This document shows, piece after piece, positions 2,817 to 29,556 of a DNA stretch of 59,383 nt. Each line of letters begins with the position of its first letter. Position 1 is the first letter of the stretch. Origin of the DNA: a virus. The notes under the pieces are model-generated. The model saw only the letters and a program-made list of their open reading frames with translations, ran no database searches and was not told the DNA's origin. The stretch is from IMG/VR virus record IMGVR_UViG_3300024232_000001, positions 1-59,383 of that record; one strand, written 5' to 3'. The position numbers and the translations under genes were made by a program.

Positions 2817-3664
2817 GCGAGCGGAGGCTTGATATTGGCGGGAATAATCCACCGCCAGACCTGAAGATCGGCGAGGCGTTACGTGAGCAACTGACCGACG
2901 AGAATCGTGCGCTGATGAAGCGCCGCGACGAACTGATGGCGATGGCTGATGATTTCGATGCCGATTACCCGACCGTGGACGACGACGATGCGAGCGGCAT
3001 TCTTGCTGGCATCATCACCCAAATTACCAAGTCGAGCAAAGCCGCCGATCAGACGCGCGAAGCCGTCAAGGCTCCATACCTTGAGGGTGGACGAATCGTT
3101 GACGGCTTCTTCAATGGCGGCATCAAGACGCCGCTGGACAAGCGCGCGGCGGCTCTAAACACAAAGCAGACCGCCTATCAGCGCGCCAAAGCAGATCGCA
3201 TTCGACGTGAGGCGGAAGAGGCGGCTCGGAAGGCGCGCGAGGAAGAAGATGCGCGGCGCCGGGAGGCTGAGAAGGCCGAGCGTGAACGGCTTGCTGCTGA
3301 GCGTGCCGCACGGAAGGCCCGCGATGATGCGGACGCCTCGGAACTGGCACGGCTCCGCGCTGCCGATGCTGAGCGTCGCGCTGAGGAAGCCCGACAGGCC
3401 GAAGAACGCGCCCGCATTGAGCGACAGGAACAGGCGAGGATTGCGGCGTCATCCGCCGCTGATCGAAGCCGGGTACGGGGTGATTATGCAGTGTCGAGCC
3501 TCAGAACCACATGGTCATTCGAGGTCTTGGACATCGCAAAGGTTCCTCCTGAGTTTCTTCAGGTCAATCAGCCGCTAGTCAACGCCGCAATCCGTGGACA
3601 GAACGGACGGCGCGACATTCCTGGCCTTCATATTTTCGCGGTCGAGACCGCACAGAATAGGTGA
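2813..3664 (+). CDS. hypothetical protein (283 aa) with long R/E/A coiled-coil core
   Basis: GTGA overlap with the upstream gene; central ARKAREEEDARRREAEKAERERLAAERAARK low-complexity helix. Confidence 0.7.
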   Translation: MSERRLDIGGNNPPPDLKIGEALREQLTDENRALMKRRDELMAMADDFDADYPTVDDDDASGILAGIITQITKSSKAADQTREAVKAPYLEGGRIVDGFFNGGIKTPLDKRAAALNTKQTAYQRAKADRIRREAEEAARKAREEEDARRREAEKAERERLAAERAARKARDDADASELARLRAADAERRAEEARQAEERARIERQEQARIAASSAADRSRVRGDYAVSSLRTTWSFEVLDIAKVPPEFLQVNQPLVNAAIRGQNGRRDIPGLHIFAVETAQNR

Positions 3665-3667
3665 TCT

Positions 3668-7195: not shown

Positions 7196-8311
7196 TTGAC
7201 CGTCCGCGTGATCCACGGCGACTGCCGCTCTGCCCTGGCCGACCTGCCAAGCGAGAGCGTGCATTGCTGCGTGACCAGCCCGCCGTACTACGGGCTGCGG
7301 GACTACGGCGTTGAGGGGCAGATCGGGCTTGAGGAAACGCCGGATGCCTACGTGGCCGAGATGGTCGCGGTGTTCCGCGAGGTCCGCCGCGTGTTACGCC
7401 CGGACGGGACGCTCTGGCTAAACATCGGAGACAGCTACGCCGGCAGCGGCAAGGGCAGCAACCCCGAAGCCGGAAAGCAGGCGACCAACAAAGGCTCACA
7501 GTCTGTCGGCGTCCTGTACGGGAAGACGGGAGAGACTGCGCGGCAGGCTGCTGTGACCAACGTCACACGCAAGACGTTCCGCGCTGGCAATCCCGAGAAG
7601 AACGGCGGCGCATCAAACCGGGACGGCATCGGAGCCGTAGGGGGCATCAAGGCCAAAGACCTGATCGGGATTCCGTGGATGCTGGCCTTTGCCCTCCGCG
7701 CCGATGGCTGGTGGCTACGCCAGGACATCATCTGGTCGAAGCCTAATCCCATGCCCGAGAGCGTCACTGACCGCTGCACCAAGGCGCACGAGTACCTGTT
7801 CATGCTCAGCAAGGGCACGAGGTACTACTACGATGCTGAGGCCATAGCAGAGCCGGCCATCTACTCGGGGCTTGCCAACCAAGACGCTAGCGGCTTCAAA
7901 AGCCCCACGTCATTCAACGGGAAGCACAAAGAAGGCTACCGGACCTCAGACAAGCAACGCGGTCACGGCCGACGCCACGCCGGCTTCAATGATCGGTGGG
8001 ACGCAATGACACGCGAGGAACAGTGCTCTGGCACGCGCAACAAGCGGTCGGTTTGGGAAGTGGCGACACAGCCGTTCCCTGACGCGCACTTCGCCACATT
8101 CCCGCCGTCGCTGATCGAGCCGTGCATCCTAGCCGGTTGCCCGAAGGGCGGAACAGTGCTCGACCCGTTCGGCGGCGCGGGAACAACTGGCTTGGTTGCT
8201 GATCGGCTAGAGCGCAGTGCCGTCCTGATCGAACTCAATCCGCAGTATGCCACGATGGCGCGCAACCGCATCTTCGACGACGCGCCGCTGTTCGCTGACG
8301 TGGCAGACTGA
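7196..8311 (+). CDS. DNA methyltransferase, beta-class N4-C/N6-A family (motif IV SPPY before motif I)
   Basis: VTSPPYYGLRDY near the N-terminus and VLDPFGGAGTTG near the C-terminus; TTG start after TTAACGGAGA. Confidence 0.9.
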   Translation: MTVRVIHGDCRSALADLPSESVHCCVTSPPYYGLRDYGVEGQIGLEETPDAYVAEMVAVFREVRRVLRPDGTLWLNIGDSYAGSGKGSNPEAGKQATNKGSQSVGVLYGKTGETARQAAVTNVTRKTFRAGNPEKNGGASNRDGIGAVGGIKAKDLIGIPWMLAFALRADGWWLRQDIIWSKPNPMPESVTDRCTKAHEYLFMLSKGTRYYYDAEAIAEPAIYSGLANQDASGFKSPTSFNGKHKEGYRTSDKQRGHGRRHAGFNDRWDAMTREEQCSGTRNKRSVWEVATQPFPDAHFATFPPSLIEPCILAGCPKGGTVLDPFGGAGTTGLVADRLERSAVLIELNPQYATMARNRIFDDAPLFADVAD

Positions 8312-9600: not shown

Positions 9601-9924
9601 CTATGCCTTCGGCACGACAGCCTTGATGTCGCCAGCCAGCTTATTCAGCCATGCGATCGTGCTCGGATCGGCGGCGGCCTTAGCGACCATGCCGCTTACG
9701 GCAGTGGCTCCCGAGCAGCTAGCGTTCGCGAACATGAGGATGGCCCCGACTTGGGGCACGACGGAGAACGGGGCCGCGAGAGCCGCAGCCGCGTTGACCG
9801 CGCCACACGCCTGATTCACAGCCGCGGCAACCTGCGTCGTGTCAGTCTGTACCGTAGCGAGCTGCGCCGGGTCACACGCTGCGAGCGAGAGGAACGCAGC
9901 CGGGATGAGAAATCGCTTCATCAC
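9601..9924 (-). CDS. lipoprotein (lipobox LAAC), candidate outer-membrane spanin
   Basis: MMKRFLIPAAFLSLAAC signal/lipobox; overlaps the upstream coiled-coil ORF; start may be 9921 (TGATG junction). Confidence 0.6.
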   Translation of the reverse strand: MMKRFLIPAAFLSLAACDPAQLATVQTDTTQVAAAVNQACGAVNAAAALAAPFSVVPQVGAILMFANASCSGATAVSGMVAKAAADPSTIAWLNKLAGDIKAVVPKA

Positions 9925-10190
9925 GGAGCCGCAGCCGTCATCGCTTCGACCGAAGCCCGATTCGAGTTGATCGTTTCGACAACGGGGTCAAGGTCGCTCT
10001 GAAGAACGAAGGGCGGCGGGCTCGCCAGCTTCGCCTGAAGAGCCTGGATGGCGGTGGTCTCGGCAGCGACGGCGGCCTGAACGGCGGCTAGATCGGCCAT
10101 ATTCTGTTTCTCCTGTCGTTCGAGTTGTTCGATGCGATCGATAAGCAGGTGGTTGATCTGGATGAGGAGGGCGATATCGGGGTGCTGCAT
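9921..10190 (-). CDS. coiled-coil protein (89 aa), possible spanin partner
   Basis: ORF track; heptad-like LIDRIEQLERQEKQNMADLAAVQAAVAAE. Confidence 0.5.
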   Translation of the reverse strand: MQHPDIALLIQINHLLIDRIEQLERQEKQNMADLAAVQAAVAAETTAIQALQAKLASPPPFVLQSDLDPVVETINSNRASVEAMTAAAP

Positions 10191-10540
10191 CAGGAAGCCC
10201 TAGCCGCTAATGCCTTGGCCTCATCCGAAGGTTCTGTCGGCTCAGGTGATACAGTCGGCGTGCTGGTCGCCAGTGCGGCCCCAAGAGCCGCGTTCGTGGC
10301 GTCTTTCTTCTGCGACGAGTTGCTGCTGCCAAGCCAGAAGCCGGCGGCGACCATCGCCAATGCCTTCACGGTCTCCTTGAGGTCAGCCGTTCCTTCGGGC
10401 GCGGGTACTAGGAGGCAGATAAAGAATAAGGCGAAGATACAAACCGTGACGAAGAGCGATCCGTAGCCGCTGAAACGCTTTGCCCATGTATCAGGATCGG
10501 ACGCAGCAACGATCGCAGCCGCAGCGGGTGTATCAGCCAT
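10190..10540 (-). CDS. two-TM membrane protein, holin candidate (116 aa)
   Basis: Hydrophobic segments LFVTVCIFALFFICLLV and ALAMVAAGFWLG; adjacent to the endolysin gene. Confidence 0.5.
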   Translation of the reverse strand: MADTPAAAAIVAASDPDTWAKRFSGYGSLFVTVCIFALFFICLLVPAPEGTADLKETVKALAMVAAGFWLGSSNSSQKKDATNAALGAALATSTPTVSPEPTEPSDEAKALAARAS

Positions 10541-10578
10541 CGCTCGCGTTTTACGCCAATCTCTCTACCGTATCAATA

Positions 10579-11388
10579 TCAAAGCGTGGCTTGCCATGCT
10601 TGGAACGCGGCTTCAGTGCCATCCCCCCAGTCCCCGTCAATTGGACCCTTGTAGAAGCCCCTATCCTTGAACGCCTGCTGCAACATGCGGATCGCGGAGA
10701 GGATCGCGTCGTCGTTCGGTTGCATCGGGGACGGCAAAGGCTCAGGCTCGATCACTGGCGGAATAACAGGCGGCGCAGGCTGCGGCGATCCCATTTGGGC
10801 AAACTCGCCGCTGGCCATGAATTTATCGAACCACGCTTGTTTCGTGGCCGCTATGTCCGGCGTGTTGTTCCCAACCGCACGCAGCATCGCATCGAAACCC
10901 CCGCCGTGATAGCGGTCCACGATGTACGCGACACAGATCGCCATGCCTATGCTCGGATCGGTAATGCCGAGATCGGGATTGTCCATGATCTCAGGATGGC
11001 CTGATTTGGTCGCGTATCGCTGGTAGTTGCCCCGGCCCGTGATCTGAATGGCGTATCGACCCCGGAACTTGTAGCCGTCGCCCGGCTGCGTATTGCCGAG
11101 ACCGCGCCCGACATTGGTCAGACTGCCGTAGACGTGCTCGAAAAATATCTTGTCGTCAGCCTTGATCTCATCCAGTTCGGCATCGCTCAAGCCTGACACC
11201 CGGCTCCCGAACACCTGCCTGATCCGGTCGTTGGACGTATGGGCATAGCCCATCTCCACATACCCGAGCATGTTGCTTTCGCCCATCGCGATTGCGGCCA
11301 TGCCGGCGCGCGTCTCGGGGTCCGTGACGCCTTGCGCGTCGAGCGCCGCCCGAAGAGCATTTGCATATACGGGATTCGGATCAGCCAT
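10579..11388 (-). CDS. endolysin: GH19-type muramidase/chitinase-like domain plus C-terminal peptidoglycan-binding domain
   Basis: YKFRGRYAIQITGRGNYQRY (GH19-like) and MLQQAFKDRGFYKGPIDGDWGDGTEAAFQAWQ (PG_binding_1-like). Confidence 0.85.
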   Translation of the reverse strand: MADPNPVYANALRAALDAQGVTDPETRAGMAAIAMGESNMLGYVEMGYAHTSNDRIRQVFGSRVSGLSDAELDEIKADDKIFFEHVYGSLTNVGRGLGNTQPGDGYKFRGRYAIQITGRGNYQRYATKSGHPEIMDNPDLGITDPSIGMAICVAYIVDRYHGGGFDAMLRAVGNNTPDIAATKQAWFDKFMASGEFAQMGSPQPAPPVIPPVIEPEPLPSPMQPNDDAILSAIRMLQQAFKDRGFYKGPIDGDWGDGTEAAFQAWQATL

Positions 11389-11638
11389 TAGTTCTCCCCA
11401 ATCTCGCCTCTAGCTCTCCTGTCGTCGGGCGCGTCGCCTCCAGCACCTTGATGCGATCCTCCAGCCGATCATCGTCGCGGCGCATCTGGGCTTCTACCGC
11501 GTCAATCCGGTTGGATACCGACTCCTTGTATTCCTCGTGCTGGCGAACCGTGAGGGAACTATCCAGTGCCCGCGAGAGCGCCGCCCACCCGGCTACAGCC
11601 ACCGCGCCAACCGCGGCGATGGTCGTCCACCAGTCCAC
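11381..11638 (-). CDS. N-terminal TM plus coiled-coil protein (85 aa), lysis-associated
   Basis: WWTTIAAVGAVAVAGWAAL then a charged helix. Confidence 0.55.
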   Translation of the reverse strand: MDWWTTIAAVGAVAVAGWAALSRALDSSLTVRQHEEYKESVSNRIDAVEAQMRRDDDRLEDRIKVLEATRPTTGELEARLGRTNG

Positions 11639-11642
11639 GGCA

Positions 11643-12053
11643 CTAGGATAACCCTAGCTTGTGCGAAAATATAGCGTACAACGCGCCTACGAGGGCCACG
11701 ACGATCGCGGCCAGCGCAGAGATCGACATCAGCATCATCTGCTTGCCGAGCGCCGTCACACGGCCATGCAGGGCGTCGGCCTGTTTGTTCATTGCCCCGC
11801 GCAACCCGTCAATCGCGTCCTGATTTTCGCAGTGCCGATTTTCGTTGATAGTGCGACCTTCGCGGAGCATCGCCTCAACGCGCTGGTTATGCTCAATACA
11901 GTTCTGTTGGTGGCTGCGCCCCTCTGTGCGGGCCTCAACAGCTATGTCACGAGTCTCACGCACCTCGCGTTGCAACTCCCGGTAGGCTCCCCCGGTGAAA
12001 ATCATCAGGGAATTACCGTTTGTAGCACACGGGGCGAGATGCATGTGTGACAA
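11643..12053 (-). CDS. C-terminally anchored membrane protein (about 130 aa); start uncertain (12053 TTG, 12044 ATG)
   Basis: ORF track; C-terminal MMLMSISALAAIVVALVGALYAIF. Confidence 0.5.
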   Translation of the reverse strand: MSHMHLAPCATNGNSLMIFTGGAYRELQREVRETRDIAVEARTEGRSHQQNCIEHNQRVEAMLREGRTINENRHCENQDAIDGLRGAMNKQADALHGRVTALGKQMMLMSISALAAIVVALVGALYAIFSHKLGLS

Positions 12054-12555: not shown

Positions 12556-14331
12556 CTAGCATGTCGGCGCGTTGGACTGGAACAATTCGCCAGTCGTCGC
12601 GTCGATACAGACGGCATTCTTGCCTCCAGACGAGGTGGTCGAAGACAGAGAATGCGACAGAACATGCCCCCCGAAGACCGCGGCGCCGCCACTCGTGTTG
12701 TAGTGTATGGCCTTGGCTGCGCCGCCTCCGAATAGATAGGCATCGATCACCCCATAGTCATCGGCGGCGTCGTACCCCATCATCGTGTATTTATTGGTCG
12801 AGGCTGGATCGATAGCAACGATGCCTCCCGGCAATGTACCATCTACCCCGCTAGCTGCCGTCGTAGACTTCACCACAAGAGCGTTATTGATCTCTTGTCC
12901 GACGCTCCCTGTCACAGTCGTGCTGAAGGCCGGGGCCGCCCCCTCCGGCGTGATGAACGTGTTGCTGAACGATGAGGTCGTATTGCCAGCAGCTAGCCGT
13001 TTTGAGCGAAGACCGTTCTGAAAAAAGAAGTTGTTGGTCGATGATCCACCTGTCGCCAGAAAGTTGTAGTAGGCACTCACAGACGATCCCGCGTCTATGA
13101 AGGCCGTCGAAAACAGATTCCCAAAGCATCCGTCGAGAATGTAGCCGTAGACATAGGTATCCATCTCGAACAGATTGCCGGTGAACACGTTAGATGTATT
13201 ACCGGAACCCCCGGCATTGCTGGCATCACACTGAACTACTGCGGTCCCGTTGTTATGGACGAACGAATTGTTCTGTACCACGATAGCGTTGGCGTATGTC
13301 TGTAACACGGCCAGCGAGTTGAGGCCGGAAAATACGCTGTTCTCGACGGTTGAGGCATATCCTTGGAACGCACCGGTAATCGTGCTCCCTGTTGAAGCCG
13401 ACATGCCGCCGAAGACGATCGCATTCTCCCCGCCACTACCGTCTCCAAGAAACGTGTCGTGATCGATCGTGACGGTCGTGTTGGTGGTATAGATGAACGG
13501 CGCGCTACATTTCAGCGTGAGAGCGCCGTTGTTATAGGTGCCGTTGCTGACTCCGGATGTCTTGAAGGTGATCGTTGAGCCAGACGCCGCGGTGAGTCGG
13601 TAATTGCCGTTTAGGGCACTCGTGGTTGAGCCTGAGACAACATACTGTGCGCCGACATAGAATCCGCATGTTGGCGGTGCTGCGAAGGTCGCTACAGCCA
13701 CGTTCCCTGTGACGACAATGTTAGTCAGGGTGCCCTCGGTAACGCTTACCGAAACCGGCGACCCTCCGTCCGTGATCGTCAGACCATCGATCCGAAGTGC
13801 GCCCAAACCGAGAGAAGTGATCTTCCCGCCATTGTTGCCGTTGTACCGTAGGTCAAGCGTGGCGGCAGTGTACTGGGGCGTTCCGGTTCGCCCATCGTAT
13901 TCCCAAACGACGCCGCCGCCACCGCATGTCGTCAATCGGATATCGGTCTGCCGAGGCAGCGGCGATCCGCTGTCATTCGGCATCAAAATCTGTGAGTTGA
14001 GGAGGTATTTCTTACCTGGGGGGAAACAGAGTGTTCCGCCGCCTGCGGTGTTGAGAGCGGCAATCGCGTCGTTTACCTTCTGAGAGTCGTCCGTCGAATC
14101 GTCGCCTACCGCTCCCCAGACGCCAGCCGAGTACATTATCCCTTGGAAGCTGGGAGCCTTGTTGCAGTTGACCGTCGCCCCTGCCGTGGGATAGTCGGCA
14201 ATCGCCCCTGCCGTGGCGCAGGTTCCAACAATGCTCGATCCAGCTAGTCCGATTGGACCGACCGGAACTTGGGCAATTGCGGGCAGTGTGAAGAGTGCGC
14301 CGAGAACGACAGCGAAAGCGTATCGCCACAT
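12556..14331 (-). CDS. tailspike / receptor-binding protein with right-handed beta-helix (pectate-lyase-like) domain; signal-peptide-like N-terminus
   Basis: GDDSTDDSQKVNDAIAALNTAGGGTLCFPPGKKY (Pectate_lyase_3-like); N-terminus MWRYAFAVVLGALFTLPAIAQVP. Confidence 0.75.
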   Translation of the reverse strand: MWRYAFAVVLGALFTLPAIAQVPVGPIGLAGSSIVGTCATAGAIADYPTAGATVNCNKAPSFQGIMYSAGVWGAVGDDSTDDSQKVNDAIAALNTAGGGTLCFPPGKKYLLNSQILMPNDSGSPLPRQTDIRLTTCGGGGVVWEYDGRTGTPQYTAATLDLRYNGNNGGKITSLGLGALRIDGLTITDGGSPVSVSVTEGTLTNIVVTGNVAVATFAAPPTCGFYVGAQYVVSGSTTSALNGNYRLTAASGSTITFKTSGVSNGTYNNGALTLKCSAPFIYTTNTTVTIDHDTFLGDGSGGENAIVFGGMSASTGSTITGAFQGYASTVENSVFSGLNSLAVLQTYANAIVVQNNSFVHNNGTAVVQCDASNAGGSGNTSNVFTGNLFEMDTYVYGYILDGCFGNLFSTAFIDAGSSVSAYYNFLATGGSSTNNFFFQNGLRSKRLAAGNTTSSFSNTFITPEGAAPAFSTTVTGSVGQEINNALVVKSTTAASGVDGTLPGGIVAIDPASTNKYTMMGYDAADDYGVIDAYLFGGGAAKAIHYNTSGGAAVFGGHVLSHSLSSTTSSGGKNAVCIDATTGELFQSNAPTC

Positions 14332-15479
14332 CAGCGTTGATCACACCCCGGCGTTGCGCGGCATGCGGCCTTCCAGCGTGTTACCTCTGACGCTTGATCT
14401 GCCAATTGACGTTCTACCCGATCTAAGCGATCGGCGATGCGCTTGATTTCAAGCGTGTTCAGCGGGACGATGCCGGCCCAATCAACCGAATTTGGCCTTC
14501 CCTCGGTATCGCGGCTGACAAGTTGAGGAAGGACAGTCGCGACCTGCTCAGCAGCGAAGCCATAGAGCAACCTGTCGTCTCCGCCCCCGTAACCTTTGTT
14601 GTAGCGGTAGGAGATAGGCTCCAACTTCAGCAGCGCATCGCCAAGATCAGCAGTTAACGGCGACACGTCATGCTTGAATCGAAGACTCGACGTTCCCAGG
14701 CAGATACCGGCTGTCCCGCTCCCGGCGTACAAGGCATGAGAGGTCGTGTCTTCGCATACCGTGGCGTCCGTGTGGGTGGCATCTGAGCTGATTTTAGGAA
14801 GCGCCACCAACCCGGTGCCCCCGGCAATGGTCAGGGCGCTGGAATAGGCGTTCTGAGTCGTGCCACTGCCACTAGCTGCCGCAACCTGGAAAGCGTAACC
14901 CCCCGAAATACCGGAGCCTGTTCCCGCGCTGTCCTGCAATGTCCACAGAGCGCCCGCGCCGTTGTTGGTCCCGGCGACAACACTTTGCGTTTGAAGCGTC
15001 TGCGCCACGGGCGTCGCAAGATCAGTATCGCCTAGACGCCAAACAGCAGCACCGGGCGCAGTCAAGATCGAGTTTCCATTCAGGCGCAACCCGTTGCCGG
15101 TCGATGCGGTCATCTGCATGCCGCTATTGTTGAGATAAACGCCGCCTGTGCTGCCATTGGCAGAGGGGACCAACTGAACGGTTGATGTTCCGCCGGTTGT
15201 ATAGACACTAACCGTATTCGAGGTATTGATATCTAATGCTTTTATCGTGTTTGTGGCCAACCCCACAGTGTTGGCCGCCGGGAGGTATAGACCATTGACG
15301 GGCACCGTTGACCCGTTCGGGATGAATGCTGGCGCCGTGATCGCACCCGTAACCGTTCCGCCCCCCGATGACAAGAACGCACCACCAATCGGCCCGATGG
15401 GAACCTGGGCAGATGCTGCCAGCGACATGCCGACCACGGCGGCAATCGTCAATCCCCTATAAGGCCAATTAACAGACAT
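14331..15479 (-). CDS. tail fibre with C-terminal S74-type intramolecular chaperone domain; signal-peptide-like N-terminus
   Basis: SSLRFKHDVSPL...LKLEPISYRYNK...LLYGFAAEQVATVLPQLV; ATG 15479 follows GAGGTG; alternative start 15500. Confidence 0.8.
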   Translation of the reverse strand: MSVNWPYRGLTIAAVVGMSLAASAQVPIGPIGGAFLSSGGGTVTGAITAPAFIPNGSTVPVNGLYLPAANTVGLATNTIKALDINTSNTVSVYTTGGTSTVQLVPSANGSTGGVYLNNSGMQMTASTGNGLRLNGNSILTAPGAAVWRLGDTDLATPVAQTLQTQSVVAGTNNGAGALWTLQDSAGTGSGISGGYAFQVAAASGSGTTQNAYSSALTIAGGTGLVALPKISSDATHTDATVCEDTTSHALYAGSGTAGICLGTSSLRFKHDVSPLTADLGDALLKLEPISYRYNKGYGGGDDRLLYGFAAEQVATVLPQLVSRDTEGRPNSVDWAGIVPLNTLEIKRIADRLDRVERQLADQASEVTRWKAACRATPGCDQR

Positions 15480-15487
15480 CTTACACC

Positions 15488-15892
15488 TCAGTTGGGGCAT
15501 GCGAAGGCCGTGATGACGGAAGAGCCACTCGCGATGATCCGAACAGCGCCTTGCGGTACGAACCCGAAGCTAGCCGCGTTGAAGAACCCGTACTGTCCAT
15601 TCACCACGACATTCCCGGCTGCCGTCAATGATGCCGTATTACCTTGAAGATTAAGAGCGAAGACACACGATGCGGTGAGGCACTGAACAAACAGCCCAGT
15701 CCGTGGGAAACCCGTGATCGTCGTTGCGCCGATCAACTGCGCGTCAGACGAAAACGTGCCGGATACATCCTTGTAGGTAGTGCAAAACGGAGGAACCTGC
15801 GCGGCGACCGGCTCCGCCATCAACAGCAGCATCCAAAGAACTGACGCACTTACTAGCTTGACCATGCGTGCCAGCGGAATAGTTCGATTCAT
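15488..15892 (-). CDS. hypothetical fibre-module protein (134 aa) with signal-peptide-like N-terminus
   Basis: ORF track; LWMLLLMAEPVAAQVP. Confidence 0.6.
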   Translation of the reverse strand: MNRTIPLARMVKLVSASVLWMLLLMAEPVAAQVPPFCTTYKDVSGTFSSDAQLIGATTITGFPRTGLFVQCLTASCVFALNLQGNTASLTAAGNVVVNGQYGFFNAASFGFVPQGAVRIIASGSSVITAFACPN

Positions 15893-15902
15893 CTGCGTCT
15901 CC

Positions 15903-17822
15903 CTAAGCCGCCGGATAGACGAGTACGAAATTGAGATTTGTATTGCTCACGTCAGAGTTCTTGCGCGCAACACCTTGCGAAGACTGAAATCTCGCAGTTG
16001 ATGAACCCTTCACGGTGACGATCGTGGTAGCGATACCGGACGTGTTGATTACGATAGCAGCCACCACCGCATAGTCCTGATTCGGAACCGCTACAGGGAG
16101 TGAAATCAACGTATTCGTCCCGTCCGCTGTGACAGGATACGTGATCTGTCCGTGCGCAAAAACCATATTGCCGATCTTGGTATAGCGACAGGCCGTTGTA
16201 AGTGACAGGCTCGCCCCCGACTGATCGGTAGGTGTCCATGTTGCCGGTGCCGTCGTATCGGAGAGAGCCGTTGATGCCAACTGTCCAACCGTGAGCGCGG
16301 CACCTGCGCTGGCCTGCTGAACTACCTGGCTTGTTCCGCCCGTCGCCGAGAAATCAGTCGTGCCGGCAGGCAACGTCAGCGTATTCGACCCGGCAGCAGC
16401 AGGAACCTTAACCGTCACGGTCCCGCTGGACGATCCTTCAAGGATCAGCGCCGTCCCGAGTTTGAGCGAGACATTTCCCGAGCTATCGACCCGGACTCGC
16501 TCAACATTTGTCCCACTCGAATTTGCCGTGAAGATCGAGACGCGACCGGGGACAACGCCACTGCTTACGGCGGCATCAGCCGCTCCAACCACAGAACCGC
16601 CAGTCTGGAAAGCCGCGCCATCCGATCCGGTGAACAGTGCGACGCCGAGGGAATCGCCGGATTGAACCGCCGTCTGAGTACCAACGCTCGCACCACGCGA
16701 TTTCCTGAAATTGACGCGCGCACCTGACGTATCCGCGCTGTACTGATCGCTTAGGATGCCGCGTGGGCTCGCGGAACTCGTGGTCACAACGTCTAGTGCC
16801 GCCGCAGGTGCGGTCGTTCCAATCCCGAGGAAATGGTTCGTCGCATCCCAGAAGTGGTTGGCGTTGTCCTGGCTGTAGACGCCACTTGCTCCAGCGTAGA
16901 CGACGCTGCCGGCGGTGAACGTGCTTGCCCCGGTGCCGCCTCGCGCTACAGCGAGCGTGCCGGACGAGATGTTGCTGGCGTTCGTGGTATCCGTCGTTGC
17001 CGAAGCGGCCAAGCCGGTAAGGTCACTCGCGGCGAGCTGACCGACTGTAAAGATGCCGCCGGAACTCGTCTGCTTGACGACCTGAGATGTACCGCCCGTG
17101 CTGCTGAAGTCTACGGTTCCCGCAGGAAAGGTGATCGTACCTGATGCCGCGCCCGCAGGCTTCCATGTCTGAGCGCCGGACACACCGCCAGCGATGACGA
17201 TGTTTCCGCCGTGCGATCCTGCCGCGCCAACATCGACCGTCACGCTCCCTGATGCCGCAGTCAGATTGATGGTCGAACCGCGAACCGTGACGCTATCGCC
17301 AGATGGGGAGCCATTCGAGGTCGAGCGCAGAGTCAGCGTCGAGTTGGTTGCCGTTCCGCCTGTAACGGTAGGAACTGTAATCCCCGTGAAAGCGAGCGAA
17401 CCGGACGAGTTGGCGAGAAGCTGGAAATTGGTCCCGTCAAAGGCAACAAGCACTACGCTGCCGCTGACGATCTCCCCACCCGTTAGAGCAGCCGCACCTT
17501 GAAGGATGGAGGTCGCGCCCAAGCCATCGACATTGAGCGTGGTCGCGCTGGTGTTCGTGGCTCCCGCGATGAAACAGAATTTGTCGCCCTGGACGTAGGC
17601 AGCGTGTGAAACGGTATGCGTCAGCGTCTGCGCATTCGCCGAACCACCACTTGTGATCGTCGGTCCTTCTTCCTGCCAGAGGCGCTTGATCGCGCCCATC
17701 ATCATCCGCGCGGCATCGTCAACCTGCGCAGGATTCATCCCCTCCGGCCAGCCGTTCGGAGGCGTGGAGGAATTTGATGCGTCCGTGGGCGACCATGTAG
17801 ATTGGTTAATGTCGTTAGCCAC
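15903..17822 (-). CDS. tail fibre protein (639 aa)
   Basis: N-terminus STWSPTDASNSSTPPNGWPEGMNPAQVDDAARMMMGAIK is fibre-like; T/S/G/A-rich repeats. Confidence 0.75.
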   Translation of the reverse strand: MANDINQSTWSPTDASNSSTPPNGWPEGMNPAQVDDAARMMMGAIKRLWQEEGPTITSGGSANAQTLTHTVSHAAYVQGDKFCFIAGATNTSATTLNVDGLGATSILQGAAALTGGEIVSGSVVLVAFDGTNFQLLANSSGSLAFTGITVPTVTGGTATNSTLTLRSTSNGSPSGDSVTVRGSTINLTAASGSVTVDVGAAGSHGGNIVIAGGVSGAQTWKPAGAASGTITFPAGTVDFSSTGGTSQVVKQTSSGGIFTVGQLAASDLTGLAASATTDTTNASNISSGTLAVARGGTGASTFTAGSVVYAGASGVYSQDNANHFWDATNHFLGIGTTAPAAALDVVTTSSASPRGILSDQYSADTSGARVNFRKSRGASVGTQTAVQSGDSLGVALFTGSDGAAFQTGGSVVGAADAAVSSGVVPGRVSIFTANSSGTNVERVRVDSSGNVSLKLGTALILEGSSSGTVTVKVPAAAGSNTLTLPAGTTDFSATGGTSQVVQQASAGAALTVGQLASTALSDTTAPATWTPTDQSGASLSLTTACRYTKIGNMVFAHGQITYPVTADGTNTLISLPVAVPNQDYAVVAAIVINTSGIATTIVTVKGSSTARFQSSQGVARKNSDVSNTNLNFVLVYPAA

Positions 17823-18147: not shown

Positions 18148-18368
18148 ACTGGTATCTAGCCGCGCTGGCATTCGTCTACGCACTGACAACTCAGTGGTCA
18201 TTAAATACGATATTCCTCCTCGGCGTTGCATTGTGGCTTGGACGCGTTCTTACTGTTGCGGCTGAGACGGTTGAGCGAAGGCATTCGAGAACGGCTGGAT
18301 ATAGGGAAGAATCCGCGGATCAATCCGCGCTCCCTGTTGCAGTCCACTCAAGGCACGCTGCGCCGTAG
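18144..18368 (+). CDS. second opposite-strand membrane ORF (74 aa); 3' end overlaps the 18250..20289 gene
   Basis: ATGA overlap with 17899..18147; MNWYLAALAFVYALTTQWSLNTIFLLGVALWLG. Confidence 0.3.
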   Translation: MNWYLAALAFVYALTTQWSLNTIFLLGVALWLGRVLTVAAETVERRHSRTAGYREESADQSALPVAVHSRHAAP

Positions 18369-20289
18369 ACATTCCACCGGATACTGCTGGGTTAGCTGAA
18401 ACAGAATAGAGAGCGCGCGCCACTTGCGGCGACATCAGTGCTTTGGAGAGACCATATCCCCCCATTATGCCTCCAAGGGACTCAAGCGGGTGGCTCGTCA
18501 GATCAAAAAAATGCTCAGCCAGCAACCCGGCCATGCCGGCACCAATGGCGTGCGACCCGCTGCCTGACGGATTGGCGAACTTAGCCACCTGCTTCTGAGC
18601 GTCTGAAACTTGCGCGAGCGCATCCAACGATTCCCGATGCGAACCCGGCACATTGGCCCCAAAAAGCGTGTCCTTGGCACTTGGCGAGAGCTTGTTCCAA
18701 TTCGTGACGAACGAAGCAGCCGAGAAATCGGGGCTTCCGGGCAAAACGCTCTGTTGTCCCGGCTGTGGCTGCCCCATCTTGCGCAGGATCGCTGCTCCGA
18801 CATTGCTCCACTCATCAGGTGGCAACGACCGCTGAAGCGATTGAAGCAAGCCAGCGTCGGCACTTCCTGTGTCGCTAGCGGCTCGATTGACCGCAGCGAA
18901 GGTCTGCTCGGGCGACCCTTTCACCAACCCTTCAAGCTTGTCTATCCGATCGATGCCAGTGGAATAATACTGGTTCGCCCGCTTGAAAGCTTGAGCGGTC
19001 TGCGGGCCTGCCGCGTTGGCAGCACCCTCCAAATCCTGCGAAATTCCGCCATAGACGCGCTTCAGGTCCGCGCGGGGAATATCATTGACAAGACCGCCAT
19101 CACCGAGCATGCGACCGATCGTCGAACGCAATTCGTTCAATTCACCAAGCGTCAGGCTCCCACCTGTCTGTATCTTCTGCGCCGCCTGCATCAGGATCGG
19201 ATTACCCTGCGCATCAACCACACTTGAATAGACTGCGGGAATGTTCTGCTCGCCGGGAGCAAGTGTGCCGAAGAACGACTGGAGACGCGGGTTCGTGATC
19301 TGCGCACCGAGCTGAGGCGATGTAGGAAACCGGTCTAGCGGCCCCTTCAGCGCGTCGAGCGTGTTGTTGATGGGAACCTGCTGCATCGGATCAACCGACT
19401 GCCAGAAGCGATCATAGAGGGCCGCAGCCTTATCCTTGAAGCTGCTCGCCCTAGTGGGGGCAGCGATGATCTGCGATTGGGTCATTCCCGCTGGAGCGGG
19501 GGCGTTCGCAAAGTTACTGATGCCCGACTGAATTACATCTCCAGCCTGCGCTGCCGGCGCTTCAGCGGTGATTGCCGGCCCCATCTGGGTAGCAAGACGA
19601 TCGGCTGCATTGCCAGTATCCTGAACCGCTTCCTGTGCGGCGTGCGCAACGGGACCGCCGAAGAAGGGAAGCTTGCTCACGATATTTGCCGTGAGGCGCG
19701 ACCCGATGCCTTGCCCCACTGCGGGCATGCTCGGCGTCACATCCAACTTCTCAAACGCCTGCATCAATTGCTGGCTTGGAGACAATGCCTGTGTCGCGCC
19801 GGACGCAACGGCAGGAATGCCCGTTTCAGGAATCGCATAAGACAGCATGCGCCCCAGAGCGGGAGCCGCAGTCTCAGCCATTGCTGGATTGCGTTCATAG
19901 ACGGCATATTGCCCTGTGCCGGGATCGCGCAACGCCACTTGTGTCTGCTGATTACGCGGAACACCAACTTCACTGAAGAAGGATTGCTCTTCGGGAGCCG
20001 CTAGTTGGTAGTTACCAGCCACATGCGGCGACGTGCCCTGCATCCCCGCAGTCATCGCATCGATGACGTTCTGCCCCATAGAGGTGACGGGCGAAACCTC
20101 GCGCGGCGCAGAACCAGCGGGCGCGAGTGTATCGCCGCGCGGTGGTTCTTGGGCTTTTGAGATCGCGCTTAGAACGTCATCGAAACGAGATGGCGGTTGC
20201 GTCATCGTCGCGGGCGCATTCGGATCAGGCGGTTGCTGCTGTTGCAGAACCTGATTCAGCATATCCAACGCACCCGAAAAATCGGTCAT
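18250..20289 (-). CDS. large virion (internal/ejection) protein (679 aa)
   Basis: ORF track; position between the fibre gene and the transglycosylase protein. Confidence 0.7.
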   Translation of the reverse strand: MTDFSGALDMLNQVLQQQQPPDPNAPATMTQPPSRFDDVLSAISKAQEPPRGDTLAPAGSAPREVSPVTSMGQNVIDAMTAGMQGTSPHVAGNYQLAAPEEQSFFSEVGVPRNQQTQVALRDPGTGQYAVYERNPAMAETAAPALGRMLSYAIPETGIPAVASGATQALSPSQQLMQAFEKLDVTPSMPAVGQGIGSRLTANIVSKLPFFGGPVAHAAQEAVQDTGNAADRLATQMGPAITAEAPAAQAGDVIQSGISNFANAPAPAGMTQSQIIAAPTRASSFKDKAAALYDRFWQSVDPMQQVPINNTLDALKGPLDRFPTSPQLGAQITNPRLQSFFGTLAPGEQNIPAVYSSVVDAQGNPILMQAAQKIQTGGSLTLGELNELRSTIGRMLGDGGLVNDIPRADLKRVYGGISQDLEGAANAAGPQTAQAFKRANQYYSTGIDRIDKLEGLVKGSPEQTFAAVNRAASDTGSADAGLLQSLQRSLPPDEWSNVGAAILRKMGQPQPGQQSVLPGSPDFSAASFVTNWNKLSPSAKDTLFGANVPGSHRESLDALAQVSDAQKQVAKFANPSGSGSHAIGAGMAGLLAEHFFDLTSHPLESLGGIMGGYGLSKALMSPQVARALYSVSANPAVSGGMSTAQRALSGLQQGARIDPRILPYIQPFSNAFAQPSQPQQ

Positions 20290-22670
20290 TGCAGATACCT
20301 ATCCAGACCGCTCTTCTGGATGAACTGGATTTGCTGTTGAAGATGCTGTAGTTCAGCCTGCCCCGAGTTCGTGCCTCCCACCTGATTGAACAGCATCTGA
20401 CGATCTTGCGGAGCCATTCGAGCCACGACGAAGGCATAGGGACTAACCTGCCCCTGCCAATTCGTCTCAAATCCGGTCACATCGCCAGGACCACGACTAC
20501 CCTGCCGTTGTTCCCACAGATTTTGCGCCTGAGACTTGGCAATCTTATAATCGTTTAGCCCTTGAAACTCGTTCAATACTCGCTGCAATCCCTGCGGCGA
20601 CATCTCAGGGTTCGGCAACGCATTGGCGATCAGTTTGAACTCCTGTACCGCAGCGCGCGGCGATGTGTCTCTGACGGCCTGCCGCGTCAGAAATCCCATA
20701 TTCTTATTGAACGACTCGTAGCTAGCCACGGAATCGGCGACAGCATCGCCTCCAGGCAGGAGACGGATTAGTGCCTTTGCATCCTGCACATGGTCCGCGA
20801 AGGGACCAGTGTAGAAGTTAGGAGCGGCTAGTTGCATCGTCCGCAAGGTCGCTTGCTGTGCCTGCGCACCGGAAGCGTCATTGATATTCTGCTGGCGTTG
20901 CTTCTGCTCCTCTTCGCCTTGAAATTTTCCAGACGCTTCGGCAACGGCTACGGCACCTGGCGATGCTTTCACCACTCCCGGAACTGGCGTGACTGTCGCG
21001 CCCTGCGGCGTCAGTTGCGTATAGACCTGAGAGGTGGAGAGATCAGGATTGATCTGATCGCGCGGGATCGGCGCAGTCGTGTACTGACCTGTTGGGTTGC
21101 CCTGAGCATCGACCTGTGGCAATGCGCTACCGGGACGCTGTGGTTCATAGGGGAACTTGGCACGCGCCGTTGCTGCGGCGGCTGGCCCGACGAACGGAAA
21201 TTTCGCTGCTTCGGTAGCCGCAGTCGTTGGCCCTACATACGGCAACTTGGCTGCTTCGGTAGCGCCCGTCGTCGCTCCCGCAACAGCCGCTTTGTAGCGT
21301 GGATCGTTATAGAGATAGGTCTGAAGCGGAGGCGCAACGTTCGGCAGTCCTGCCGCCGTCATCATCGCACCGAGTACGGCCACGTTGCGCGGATTGATCG
21401 CACCACCAGTTCCATAGCCGCCCATCGCAGGGTTCGGAGGCGCGACGCCCGGAACATTGCCTTGCGCCAATCGAGCGCGTGCCTGTGCATTGAACTGATC
21501 GATCGGCGATGCGGCTCCTGCTGGCGTGGCTTGGGCCAATTGCTGCCCAGGCGCGCCGGTAACAGGAGGGGTCGCAAGCGGCTGTCCCGTATCCTGATTG
21601 ACGAGTTGAGCGTTCGGACCATTGCCCGAAAGCCCGACGCGAGGAGGCAACCCTTGAGGCGTTGTTGGTGGCTGCTGTGTGCCTGCGACTTGCGGCGCTG
21701 TAGGCGCATACGGCGCGCCCTGATTGCCCATCATCGCGCCAGTGAAGTCAGGCACCGGGGGCAGGCTGGAGTCGGCTTCTTGCCCCGTTGCCGCACCACT
21801 GTCAGGCGAGTATTTGGCGAGATTCGCCTGATAGGACTTCATCGCCTTACCGATCGTCGGCCACTGCCCGCCAAGTGCCGACGCCACATCCTGCGTACGT
21901 CCTTCGTGGAGGTCATCTAGAAGCGGACGCCCAGTCTTGTCCTGATAGGTCTGCTGAGCCAACGTCCATGCCGCCTGATCCTGACTGACGGGAGAGAAAT
22001 CCTGCAATCCCTTCTCTTGAGCAATCGGATTGAACGTACTACTCAGAAACTGGTAGCGCCCCGCTGCGTCGCTAGTCTGACCCTTGTAAGGGCCGCTAGT
22101 GATTGGAACCTTCACCTGTGGATGCGCGCTGAAGTCGTCAAACGTTGCGCCGGGGCCACCGTCATAGCGGATGTTGTATGCTCCGCTCGACTCAGGACCG
22201 GCAATGCTGTCAAGCAATGCGCGCGCCTCGCGCGGGAGCGTCGCGTCCGCCGTAATGCTGGAAACGGCTGGTTCTGATCCTGAACTCGGCGTTGCACCAG
22301 TATCCGCGGGCGGCTCAACCCCGGTGGTATCTGTCGGCGCACCGCCGCCTTGACCGTTCAGCATCTGCTGAAACATGGAATTGATCTGCGGATAGATCGC
22401 CTGTTCCTGCTTTAGCTTCGCAACCTGCGCGTTGAAAAGCTGAGCCTGCTGCTTCCGAAGCTCTGCCTCGCTCTGAACGTTTTGCTGATTGGAAAACGCG
22501 GTCATCAACGCCGCGGGGTCAACATACGGAGGACGCGGCGCCTGAATGCCGGGGAAGGACGAGACGTTCTGCTGCGCCTTCGGAACAGGCGCAATCGTAG
22601 GACCGCCGACGAGCGGAATGCCGCCGATGCCAAGGCCGGGCAGAAGCTGGCTGAACATCGAAGCGCCCAT
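20286..22670 (-). CDS. internal virion protein with lambda-R-type (GH104) lytic transglycosylase domain
   Basis: IAGPESSGAYN...AGRYQFLSSTF...KGLQDFSPVSQDQAAW parallels lambda R (AGRYQLLS...LGLKDFSPKSQD); start 22670 (TGATG junction) or 22685. Confidence 0.8.
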   Translation of the reverse strand: MGASMFSQLLPGLGIGGIPLVGGPTIAPVPKAQQNVSSFPGIQAPRPPYVDPAALMTAFSNQQNVQSEAELRKQQAQLFNAQVAKLKQEQAIYPQINSMFQQMLNGQGGGAPTDTTGVEPPADTGATPSSGSEPAVSSITADATLPREARALLDSIAGPESSGAYNIRYDGGPGATFDDFSAHPQVKVPITSGPYKGQTSDAAGRYQFLSSTFNPIAQEKGLQDFSPVSQDQAAWTLAQQTYQDKTGRPLLDDLHEGRTQDVASALGGQWPTIGKAMKSYQANLAKYSPDSGAATGQEADSSLPPVPDFTGAMMGNQGAPYAPTAPQVAGTQQPPTTPQGLPPRVGLSGNGPNAQLVNQDTGQPLATPPVTGAPGQQLAQATPAGAASPIDQFNAQARARLAQGNVPGVAPPNPAMGGYGTGGAINPRNVAVLGAMMTAAGLPNVAPPLQTYLYNDPRYKAAVAGATTGATEAAKLPYVGPTTAATEAAKFPFVGPAAAATARAKFPYEPQRPGSALPQVDAQGNPTGQYTTAPIPRDQINPDLSTSQVYTQLTPQGATVTPVPGVVKASPGAVAVAEASGKFQGEEEQKQRQQNINDASGAQAQQATLRTMQLAAPNFYTGPFADHVQDAKALIRLLPGGDAVADSVASYESFNKNMGFLTRQAVRDTSPRAAVQEFKLIANALPNPEMSPQGLQRVLNEFQGLNDYKIAKSQAQNLWEQRQGSRGPGDVTGFETNWQGQVSPYAFVVARMAPQDRQMLFNQVGGTNSGQAELQHLQQQIQFIQKSGLDRYLQ

Positions 22671-23284
22671 CAGGCGTTCCCCCATGAGGCGACCGCAACG
22701 CCATAATAGCGCAAGGAACTGTCCGCGCTATGCCAGATCAGGCCGCGCAGGCATTCCGGCGTCTCGTCGATGATCTGGGCCAGCGTCTCGCGATGTTCCA
22801 AATCCTTGATGGCATGCTCTCGGATGAACTTCGTGCTCTGTGCCCCGTGTAGTTCCTCAAGCGCATCGACCGTATCGAGCGGAATCGGATCGCTCTCTAG
22901 CGACGCCATGTATCCTAAGAGCGATGCCGGGTGTCGGTGCTTCAGTAGGTAGTATTGCGTACCGACAAGGGCCATCGCCAGCGGATCAGGCAACGGTGTT
23001 GGCGAGATACCGGCTCCGTGCATGTCGCTAATCAGCCACGAAAGGTGCCCCGTTTCCTCCTCAAGATGCTCCTCCATGTAGCCTTCAAGGCGAGCGATGA
23101 AGGCATCTCGCGGCTTCCGGGCCGTCTCGACCAGCGCCTCTTTCAGCAACCGCTCGCTCGCAACTACCAGATCGTGCAGAAACAGCATATTGGCAGCAAA
23201 AATCTGAGGTGATGCCAAATCGGTGCGCAAGAACGTAGATCGTGCGCTTCGCACCATCGCCGCGATGTTCTCGGAGAACTGCAT
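22670..23284 (-). CDS. heme-oxygenase-like (HO-fold) putative diiron protein (204 aa)
   Basis: All-helical; EEHLEEETGH (ExxH) and EHAIKDLEH (HxxxDxxH) resemble HDO/PF14518 ligand motifs. Confidence 0.55.
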   Translation of the reverse strand: MQFSENIAAMVRSARSTFLRTDLASPQIFAANMLFLHDLVVASERLLKEALVETARKPRDAFIARLEGYMEEHLEEETGHLSWLISDMHGAGISPTPLPDPLAMALVGTQYYLLKHRHPASLLGYMASLESDPIPLDTVDALEELHGAQSTKFIREHAIKDLEHRETLAQIIDETPECLRGLIWHSADSSLRYYGVAVASWGNA

Positions 23285-27849: not shown

Positions 27850-27853
27850 GGCA

Positions 27854-28956: not shown

Positions 28957-29556
28957 TCAGCCGCCGGACGGGGCGCGGCAAATGTACTGCACGACATTGC
29001 TACTCGTGCTGGTCTGCGTCAGCGTGATAGCAGCGGTGGAAGTCACATAGCTCTGGCTCGCAAGCGGGGTCGCGATCCAGGCAACGACGCAAAACGGCGT
29101 GCTCGTATAGGCGACATTGAACGTGATGACACAGCCGGTCGCGCTGGTGCCCATCGTGACGATGCCAGCTTCGTCCGTTCCCGTGATCGCTGGCGTGCCA
29201 CCACCACAGGAAGTCAGGGCCGGCGCAGTAGCCTGTGCCGTTGCAACATGAGTAGGCGTACCAGCTGAATTGCCGAAGGTGACAAGCGTTCCCTTCAGGT
29301 TGGTAGCGCCGCTCAGATTTGAAGTGCCGGTCGCCGAGAGTGTCGAAAACGCCCCAGTCGATGCCGTGTTGGCTCCGATTGGAGTTCCATCGATACAACC
29401 TCCCGTGATGCTGACCTGGTCCTTAGTCTGAACAGACAGGAGGGGTGCAGTCGATGGCAGAGCACTTGCGCCAGTCGCTACCGTGCAAGCCGCGAAAGCA
29501 CCGTGCCCAATGACCGCAAAACATGCCGCCACGAGAAGCGTGTTGAGATTCTTCAT
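28957..29556 (-). CDS. T/S/A/G-rich protein (199 aa) with signal-peptide-like N-terminus
   Basis: MKNLNTLLVAACFAVIGHGAFAAC; ATGA-coupled to the upstream oxygenase gene. Confidence 0.65.
   Translation of the reverse strand: MKNLNTLLVAACFAVIGHGAFAACTVATGASALPSTAPLLSVQTKDQVSITGGCIDGTPIGANTASTGAFSTLSATGTSNLSGATNLKGTLVTFGNSAGTPTHVATAQATAPALTSCGGGTPAITGTDEAGIVTMGTSATGCVITFNVAYTSTPFCVVAWIATPLASQSYVTSTAAITLTQTSTSSNVVQYICRAPSGG

Follow-up and report, generated by a model that had tools for sequence, protein, structure and literature searches.

Fibre- and tailspike-like proteins with predicted Sec-type signal peptides in the late operon of an uncultivated podovirus-like phage

Introduction

Tailed-phage particles are taken to be built wholly in the cytoplasm, and the annotation of tail fibres and tailspikes follows this assumption. 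Classical tailspikes and S74 fibres, such as those of P22, HK620 and Sf6, the K1F endosialidase and T5 pb1, lack a signal peptide, possess a particle-binding domain at the N-terminus and are assembled in the cytoplasm. We analysed 59,383 nucleotides of DNA (positions 1 to 59,383 of IMG/VR virus record IMGVR_UViG_3300024232_000001, hereafter the window) in which three consecutive late genes, g134, g382 and g591, together with a fourth, g199, encode proteins whose N-termini are very probably genuine signal peptides of the general secretory (Sec) type that would direct their export. The module formed by the first three shares with the classical proteins the folds, the position after the ejection genes and before the lysis genes, and the swapping of protein bodies downstream of a conserved N-terminal module, and differs from them in the features just named.

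Precedents exist: S74 fibres are exported in Bdellovibrio and a tailspike fold in WceF, T5 Llp is an exported phage protein whose gene adjoins one for receptor binding, and signal-peptide proteins that expose Gln occur in Porphyromonas gingivalis phages. T5 Llp is credited with shielding progeny from the receptor on cell debris and with preventing superinfection; unlike the proteins described here, it is a small lipoprotein that binds an outer-membrane protein receptor and is not fibre-like, and receptor masking is a candidate role in the present case. The mosaic adhesive trimeric (MAT) fibres of Bdellovibrio bacteriovorus are S74 trimeric fibres with a Sec signal peptide and swappable tips that fold outside the cytoplasm, and they are thus a precedent for S74 trimerization in that setting (PMC10769870). 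They resemble g382 in being phage-like trimeric fibres with a C-terminal S74 chaperone/autoprotease and a motif of the S-x-x-x-K type. However, MAT fibres are encoded by chromosomal genes of a predatory bacterium and displayed on its surface, whereas the genes studied here are phage-borne, lie in a late operon and are nearly absent from bacteria. Moreover, homology of g382 to ordinary phage fibres begins at residue 44; the comparison with the MAT family is by description.

WceF of Pantoea stewartii is a periplasmic enzyme with a tailspike fold that trims the exopolysaccharide (EPS) of its own producer (PMC7949094). WceF and RbmB (the latter a Foldseek match, 9ozl) share with g591 a right-handed beta-helix of the tailspike type and an export signal, and they act on the EPS of their own producer; the likeness to g591 was seen at the level of the fold. 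WceF is exported folded by a twin-arginine translocation (Tat) signal and belongs to a bacterial EPS cluster, whereas g591 is phage-encoded, has 10 Cys and carries a Sec-type leader without an RR pair. In P. gingivalis phages, signal-peptide proteins have signal peptidase I sites that expose Gln (PMC10367356, PMC5837995), and the Q-value of Bacteroidetes is about 71% (PMC5837995). There, the Gln reflects the host phylum, whereas here it is found in 63-77% of proteins on contigs of 40-67% GC. A survey of prophage carbohydrate-active enzymes recorded signal peptides in 5%, with tail fibres excluded from the survey (PMC13507307). Our literature search turned up no account of fibre or tailspike modules with Sec signals encoded in tailed-phage late operons, and the original prediction was right to call exported fibre proteins unexpected in such phages.

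Results

The four N-termini quoted in the original prediction, and their n-h-c organization, were all recovered in open reading frames (ORFs) on the minus strand. Each leader comprises a short basic n-region, an h-region of 13-15 uncharged hydrophobic residues and a small-x-small site. In g591 (12556..14331), the n-region MWR is followed by the h-region YAFAVVLGALFTL and the c-region PAIA, then Q; in g382 (14331..15479), MSVNWPYR is followed by GLTIAAVVGMSLA and ASA, then Q; in g134 (15488..15892), MNRTIPLARMVK is followed by LVSASVLWMLLLMA and EPVAA, then Q; and in g199 (28957..29556), MK is followed by NLNTLLVAACFAVIG and HGAFA, then A. The residues at -3 to -1 are A-I-A in g591, A-S-A in g382, V-A-A in g134 and A-F-A in g199. 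The claim that three proteins have A-x-A followed by QVP was thus accurate for g591 and g382; the site of g134 is V-A-A, yet the -3/-1 rule is kept. The predicted signal peptides span residues 1-31 of g134 (15800..15892, ...EPVAA then QVPPFC), 1-24 of g382 (15408..15479, MSVNWPYRGLTIAAVVGMSLAASA then Q) and 1-20 of g591 (14272..14331, MWRYAFAVVLGALFTLPAIA then Q). No RR pair occurs in any of the four n-regions, so the leaders do not look like Tat signals.

Leaders were scored with a crude, home-made heuristic that combines the n-h-c organization with the -3/-1 rule and uses a cut-off of 4.5; it is not SignalP. A score of at least 4.5 was reached by exactly 4 of the 95 non-overlapping ORFs in the window, namely g591, g382, g134 and g199. 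The MSVNW start of g382 (15479) lies 8 nt past the g134 stop and has a GAGGTG Shine-Dalgarno sequence 5 nt upstream, and it was for these reasons preferred over a longer ORF starting at 15500. GGGAGA is found upstream of the g134 start, and the g382 stop and g591 start overlap (TGATG).

We then asked how consistently the leaders are retained in homologues. The homologue sets comprised 124 sequences for g382 and 10 for g591, and 130 sequences were scored. By the same heuristic a leader was present in about 93 of these 130, most of the others being 5'-truncated or having a mis-called start, and in nearly all 25 IMG/VR loci of the S74 family. All relatives of g134 carried one, with an h-region whose sequence is not conserved. 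For the C-terminal four-Cys domain of g199 (the tip domain), leaders were found in 120 of the best 150 of 1348 representatives at 50% identity and in 38-40 of 45 IMG/VR loci. In the three families, some 75-90% of homologues are thus leader-bearing, and the hydrophobic core keeps its character while its sequence drifts. A small-x-small site precedes Gln in most members, and Gln stands at +1 in 63 of 82 leader-bearing members of the S74 family and in 75 of 120 of the tip family. Because this holds on contigs of 40-67% GC, one of which (L029) has markers of alphaproteobacterial phages (GapR, DUF1376 and MT-A70, which we take to be typical of such phages), the Gln appears to be a property of the protein class; a Bacteroidetes host as its source was considered and dropped, the frequency being the same over that GC range. 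Gln at this position would permit a pyroglutamate cap. In AlphaFold2 models, the g134 leader is a lone helix (residues 7-24), and residues 1-61 of g591 have no packed structure (predicted local distance difference test score, pLDDT, <50).

A bias towards even numbers of cysteines is an accepted signature of disulfide-bonded exported proteins. Among leader-bearing members, the mature part had an even Cys count in 79 of 82 proteins of the S74 family, in 114 of 120 of the tip family and in all 7 of the g134 family, whereas leaderless S74 relatives were split 19:15 (even:odd). Since shared domains could inflate such a bias, the recount was limited to the variable, non-homologous parts, and the ratios were then 57:1 (S74 family) and 78:7 (tip family), with p ~1e-16. 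In the window, mature g591 has 10 Cys, g382 and g134 have 4 each and g199 has 6, while g679, g799 and the ejection protein, all three of them large internal virion proteins, have none. Moreover, a Cys242/Cys260 pair located just before the S74 cleavage site was present in 76 of 77 leader-bearing members and in 0 of 3 with a classical fibre N-terminus. These data, read from sequence, indicate that the four N-termini are very probably genuine Sec-type signal peptides and that the proteins are exported.

The junction between leader and mature protein was also compared. The protein encoded after g134 and the window protein g591 share a leader cassette of the form M..W.Y(R), a variable h-region and A.A followed by Q.P...(I/V)G, with W5, Y7, A24, Q25, P27 and G32 as its invariant positions. 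The aromatic n-region, which is unusual for a signal peptide, takes the forms NWPYR, NWDYR, KWPYA and MWRYA (window, L045, L047, L095-L097). Among 162 homologues elsewhere that have Gln at +1, QVP occurs in only 3, so the junction is shared by the window proteins beyond chance. The junction motifs of g382 (AQVPIGPIG, 15384..15410, minus strand, comprising the cleavage site and the first mature residues) and g591 (AQVPVGPIG, 14248..14274, minus strand) show synonymous differences in 6 of 9 codons of AQVP[V/I]GPIG; recent gene conversion therefore does not account for the conserved peptide, and on the same grounds we dropped a recent duplication as the origin of the common QVP. In g134, by contrast, QVP is part of a separate family motif, VPP.C, and its match is for that reason partly coincidental. 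The predicted common QVP junction is thus borne out for g591 and g382, and less so for g134. Judged from the alignments, the shared junction is real and under selection, and its conservation falls on the aromatic residues of the n-region and on the start of the mature protein rather than on the h-region.

g134 was found in the corresponding position in six further loci (L045, L046, L047, L095, L096 and L097), and the layout of the window recurs, partly or fully and with its gene order kept, in five relatives. L045/L046 and L047 have the full layout, with a leaderless fibre, g134, two leader-bearing proteins and the lysis genes. The short contigs L096 and L097 contain the end of the leaderless fibre, g134 and the start of one leader-bearing protein, and in L095 the gene upstream of g134 is itself leader-bearing, g134 being followed by one leader-bearing protein and a small membrane protein. 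Where these are present, the phages that share g134 also share the g639 N-terminus, the endolysin and the holin, whereas the bodies of their leader-bearing proteins are unrelated. L096 and L097 are near-identical strains of the window phage (g134 94% identical, the same g639 end), yet in their version of the protein with the common MSVNWPYR...AQVPxGPxGG, both the h-region and the body differ from those in the window. The conserved W.Y and the first eight or so mature residues could serve as a docking peptide after cleavage, for g134 or another partner, and a small periplasmic complex of g134 with these mature residues (Q.P...IG) is probable.

g382 is predicted to be an exported trimeric-fibre protein with a C-terminal Peptidase_S74 intramolecular chaperone. 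The S74 label proposed earlier is well founded, since Pfam PF13884 matched with 33.4 bits against a cut-off of 22 over profile positions 1-57 of 58. This chaperone and autoprotease domain (14517..14690, minus strand) is preceded by the invariant Cys242/Cys260 pair, and its S-x-x-x-K motif is SLRFK at 14673-14687 (GTS-SLRFK, residues 263-269), SSARYK being the family form. Homology to ordinary leaderless phage fibres starts 20 residues past the cleavage site. PDB entry 8jov matches the S74 region only.

g591 is a predicted exported right-handed beta-helix protein resembling a tailspike or polysaccharide depolymerase. The fold part of its earlier label, beta-helix tailspike, is supported by AlphaFold2 and Foldseek; the Pfam match is below threshold (PF12708, 25.6 bits with a cut-off of 27, residues 73-116 only), and PHROG 7458 'tail spike' matched with an E value of 7e-6. 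The model shows strands throughout residues 66-413 (the predicted beta-helix core, 13093..14136, minus strand), with pLDDT mostly 70-90. All 38 Foldseek matches to the PDB at E<=1e-3 are beta-helix glycanases, lyases, adhesins or tailspikes. The partners include GH110, PfbA, the RbmB lyase and the AP22, K1-lyase, HK620 and Sf6 tailspikes (E 3e-7 to 2e-3), with low TM-scores because the termini are poorly modelled; the mean pLDDT is modest for both g591 (58) and g134 (60). As to the tailspike part of the label, g591 has no leaderless particle-binding N-domain of a virion tailspike, the helix being preceded by the leader and about 45 low-confidence residues. Leaders are likewise present in the g591 homologues P0002, P0004, P0006, P0008 and P0009, whereas P0007 has a g591-type body behind a classical, leaderless ADTKISALT-type fibre N-terminus. 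The leaderless relatives of g382 and g591 (P0007, P0113 and P0121) have the classical architecture and lack the cysteine pair.

g134 is a small exported protein by the same prediction and a conserved companion of the module, with a 31-aa leader and a beta-sandwich of about 100 aa. Its four cysteines (C37, C71, C76 and C132) are invariant in g134 and seven homologues. The low-confidence AlphaFold2 model (mean pLDDT 60) places beta strands after the helix of residues 7-24. Foldseek gave no significant PDB match for this fold; the best E value was 0.007 (cupins and an Ena pilus subunit), and these hits were not used as evidence. A sequence search of the PDB with g134, the tip domain and the canonical N-terminal motif of leaderless fibres likewise returned no match.

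The fourth predicted exported protein, g199, has a 22-aa leader, a short fibre-like stretch and the C-terminal tip domain (28960-29259, minus strand). Many tip-domain proteins in the IMG/VR loci are only 124-180 aa long. A lipoprotein reading of g199 was considered, since GAFA-AC can be read as F-A-A-C, but it was dropped as homologues differ: in P0146, P0159 and P0235 the first Cys stands at +2/+3 after A-x-A. The six mature Cys fit signal peptidase I.

Immediately upstream of the module lies g639 (15903..17822, minus strand), a leaderless tail fibre that is presumably the virion fibre. Its N-terminus, MANDINQSTWSPTDASNSSTPPNGWPEGMNPAQVDDAAR, is hydrophilic and has no leader, and there are 2 Cys in its 639 aa. 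Over its first 140 aa it shares 59% identity with the fibre encoded before the g134 homologue in L047, and g639 as a query gave N-terminal matches only. By eye, a segment of about 45 aa (...LTLPAGT.DFS.TGGTSQVV.Q.S.G...TVGQLA...) is present twice within g639. The genes of the module are separated by gaps of 8-10 nt or overlap. A scan of the minus strand over 12556-17822 with the E. coli sigma-70 consensus, for a host that is only loosely inferred, found no promoter or terminator above the shuffled background. From this arrangement we infer that the module genes are made late, on the fibre transcript.

We further investigated the distribution of the families in 185,579 bacterial and archaeal genomes (one genome per species), 50,697 isolate phages and IMG/VR. 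The genome-collection scans used short degenerate patterns that can miss relatives, and ORFs in the fetched loci are our own simple calls. The S74 family was found in 25 and the tip family in 45 IMG/VR loci, on contigs of 4-91 kb, many of them 40-90 kb, compared to 0 and 1 loci among the bacterial and archaeal genomes. The single tip-domain locus (L048, 6178-6447 of DATAYM010000070.1, a metagenome-assembled genome (MAG) of a member of the Caulobacteraceae) is a weak pointer to alphaproteobacterial hosts. The families are nearly absent from the isolate phages, among which megablast with 10-23 kb and tblastn with g591, g134 and g199 found nothing useful, and tblastn with g382 matched the S74 end only. 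Relatives of g134 all came from protein search, none being found in IMG/VR or JGI metagenome contigs.

The carriers of both families are otherwise unrelated to the window phage. Loci L032-L037, which were sought through the conserved internal protein g679, share with the window only g679 and g799, in a different layout. The positions of the leader genes also vary, lying before the lysis genes in L002, after the capsid gene in L003, upstream of the terminase in L029 and between head and tail genes in L006. In L030 they lie between the small terminase and a 496-aa ORF taken as the large terminase by position and size only. Runs of two to five leader-bearing genes are common. In L017 (5041-14805), eight consecutive leader-bearing proteins are encoded between the large terminase and the portal. 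This run includes an S74 fibre (775 aa) and a GH26 glycanase (671 aa), and it looks like a secreted set rather than virion parts.

In a 65-kb podovirus-like contig (L010 5322-13319 and L094 1-10000), all fibre-like proteins encoded after the internal virion proteins are leader-bearing; they have 676 aa (with a PHROG tail-fibre match), about 350 aa, 445 aa (S74) and 872 aa. Within the part of this genome that was read, the region between the capsid gene and the late-operon end yielded no leaderless fibre. An ORF in another frame at about 7360 looks by eye like a GH25-type lysozyme. In L010_445, L005_529, P0079 and P0275, the canonical N-terminal domain of leaderless fibres directly follows the leader; its ADTKISAL-type motif matches proteins of Flavobacterium phages that are annotated as structural or minor tail proteins.

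By its gene and domain assignments, the window (about 60 kb, 59% GC) is the genome of a podovirus-like temperate phage, called temperate because of the tyrosine integrase at 55363-56346. The replication and lifestyle genes at 55363-56346, 2813-4894, 7196-8311 and 39628-40425 comprise this tyrosine integrase, an exonuclease and RecT pair, a DNA methyltransferase and a head-adjoining HslV-family peptidase. The late genes, all on the minus strand, run in the order primase, small terminase, large terminase, portal (36795-38978), major capsid protein (34468-35562), accessory island, tail adaptor and nozzle proteins (26320-28603), ejection or internal proteins (18250-25062), fibre, three-protein module and lysis cassette. 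The isolate capsid closest to that of the window is from Rhizobium phage RHph_Y1_10 (54% identity), with Bcep22-like and Stx-phage capsids farther off, and no leader-bearing fibre was found in RHph_Y1_10. The N-terminus of g592 (23284-25062) matches a PHROG 'DNA ejection protein', and g592 is related to a 477-aa Peptidase_S74 protein in L047 (2326-3759). RHph_Y1_10, in turn, has an S74-annotated protein just upstream of its injection proteins (L031 37432-38370). In this lineage, the S74 module thus has a further use in internal virion proteins.

The lysis cassette (9601-12053, minus strand) lies directly downstream of the exported module. It encodes three small membrane proteins (11643-12053, 11381-11638 and 10190-10540), an endolysin with a GH19-like and a peptidoglycan-binding domain (10579-11388), an ORF of 89 aa (9921-10190) and a lipobox protein, MMKRFLIPAAFLSLAAC, which is an o-spanin-like lipoprotein (9601-9924). 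The last two look like an i-spanin/o-spanin pair, and the lipobox protein thus points to a diderm host with the usual Sec and lipoprotein pathways. The host can be placed only loosely, from the capsid relatives, the one Caulobacteraceae MAG and this spanin lipoprotein. The accessory island (28957-33999, minus strand), which lies between the head and tail genes and contains g199, also encodes a TPR protein with 10 cysteines (32593-33999), a methyltransferase (30226-30957) and a 261-aa protein without assignment (29553-30338), all on the minus strand. The GC content falls to 0.564 at 30-32 kb, and a similar drop is seen at 12-14 kb over the exported module.

Discussion

We favour, with moderate confidence, a role of the four proteins as free exported proteins over their attachment to virions. 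According to this proposal, g134, g382, g591 and g199 would be translated late, the first three on the transcript of the virion fibre g639, and would cross the inner membrane unfolded through Sec. Signal peptidase I would then cut before Gln (before Ala in g199), and the proteins would fold oxidatively in the periplasm with formation of disulfide bonds. There, g382 would be trimerized by its C-terminal S74 chaperone, which would afterwards cut itself. At burst, the adjoining downstream cassette of holin, endolysin and spanin would release the proteins. Such a sequence of events would mean that they are not assembled onto particles in the cytoplasm, and leaderless g639 would stay the particle's own fibre. 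Once free, g382 and g199 may bind and g591 may cleave glycans, so that host polysaccharide would be targeted from the periplasm and then from outside. Possible roles are the clearing of matrix or capsule and the destruction or masking of receptor on debris and on neighbouring cells. The statement as a whole, down to the free and not virion-bound state, we regard as evenly balanced.

A free role is favoured because the window phage has its own leaderless fibre and because the leader genes lie at non-fibre positions elsewhere. Furthermore, the clusters include the GH26 family of secreted enzymes as well as many very small members, and exported enzymes of the tailspike fold by which bacteria trim EPS of their own are known (WceF and RbmB). 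The suggestion of the original prediction that these are secreted enzymes outside the virion thus is still the most economical reading. Several points weigh against it. A protein that is free only after lysis would not need export, for which oxidative folding may be the reason. The genes occupy the receptor-binding-protein slot of podoviruses and are translationally coupled to the fibre gene. L010_445, L005_529, P0079 and P0275 appear to keep the canonical N-domain of leaderless fibres after the predicted cleavage site, and the L010/L094 phage shows only leader-bearing fibre-like proteins from the capsid gene to the operon end. Sec targeting alone would not explain the conservation of the W.Y n-region and of Q.P...IG. 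Finally, the leader calls come from a crude, home-made score, and the enzymatic activities and ligands of g591, g382, g199 and g134 are proposed from fold or family only.

Several of these points would fit a last assembly step outside the cytoplasm, in which fibres matured in the periplasm dock on finished particles when the holin opens or at lysis. Docking could use Q.P...IG or the ADTKISAL-type domain, possibly with g134 as an adaptor. We consider this a possible but doubtful alternative. To our knowledge, no tailed phage assembles fibres onto particles after export; still, P22 tailspikes attach to spikeless particles in vitro, so late extracytoplasmic attachment is chemically feasible. The genes lie in the receptor-binding slot of the late operon, a conserved post-cleavage peptide on swapped bodies is the typical pattern of a fibre anchor, the small partner g134 is conserved, and a leader followed by the canonical fibre N-domain (L010_445, L005_529, P0079 and P0275) as well as the L010/L094 phage, with no leaderless fibre from capsid gene to operon end, point the same way. 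It is these last two observations that lend some support to the earlier suggestion of addition after export or lysis. However, the time needed for mixing and the dilution at lysis would make attachment inefficient, the window phage already possesses a leaderless fibre in g639, and leader genes at non-fibre positions, the GH26 enzyme and the many proteins of 124-180 aa do not look like virion parts. In addition, the function of the canonical N-terminal motif is taken from annotation only, and the L010 genome was read in part. In its complete form, this explanation would have a widespread group of uncultivated tailed phages build receptor-binding proteins in the periplasm, Sec-exported, disulfide-locked and pyroglutamate-capped, and attach them after the holin breach through the short post-cleavage peptide or through the canonical fibre N-domain plus a g134 adaptor, which we find rather unlikely.

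Expression from the prophage is less probable again: at a low level, the proteins would modify the envelope of the lysogen, trimming or masking its polysaccharide and excluding superinfection. The phage is temperate, the site between tail fibre and lysis genes is moron-like, the GC content dips at 12-16 kb, and bodies are swapped between near-identical strains; T5 Llp offers an analogue. Another is WceF (PMC7949094). Against this, the scan with an E. coli-type consensus found no promoter or terminator of their own, the genes are coupled to the late operon, homologues elsewhere sit inside head and packaging operons, and the near absence of the families from bacteria and archaea (0 and 1 loci in 185,579 genomes) would be unexpected for lysogen genes. 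The leaders might instead be uncleaved signal anchors or signal-arrest-release (SAR) tethers that hold the proteins until depolarization at lysis, as in SAR endolysins. The Gly/Ala/Ser-rich h-region of g382, GLTIAAVVGMSLAASA, would suit such a tether, and in some short homologues with the tip domain the N-terminus is hydrophobic but lacks an obvious cleavage site. It is nonetheless very unlikely, as most members have a canonical small-x-small site followed by Gln, the h-regions of g591 and g134 are strongly hydrophobic, and conservation resumes exactly at the predicted cleavage site. Least probable is that the proteins are not exported and that the N-terminus is a docking helix buried in the tail which resembles a signal peptide by accident. 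The common N-terminal module on alternative fibre-like proteins is real, but the h-region is its least conserved part, and the same n-h-c architecture recurs, with unrelated h-regions, on hundreds of bodies that are themselves unrelated. Moreover, the even-Cys bias (57:1 and 78:7) occurs only in leader-bearing members, and AlphaFold2 gives the g591 N-terminus no packed position. A conserved hydrophobic docking peptide, as originally proposed, was rejected because the hydrophobic stretch is what varies most; a weaker form holds, that of a portable leader cassette with conserved flanks.

Taken together, three large families of fibre or tailspike type, with export signals and a cysteine signature of oxidative folding, are found in the late operons of many unrelated uncultivated phages. 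If our favoured reading of free action is true, these phages release a durable set of glycan-binding and glycan-cutting proteins, which would matter for host-range prediction, for depolymerase mining and for the movement of phages through soil biofilms. If the proteins are virion-bound, part of the assembly would occur outside the cytoplasm, and it is in this case that the finding would be categorically new. Recombinant production would probably need periplasmic expression. In either case, pipelines that label such genes 'tail fiber' and infer host range from them may misread them.

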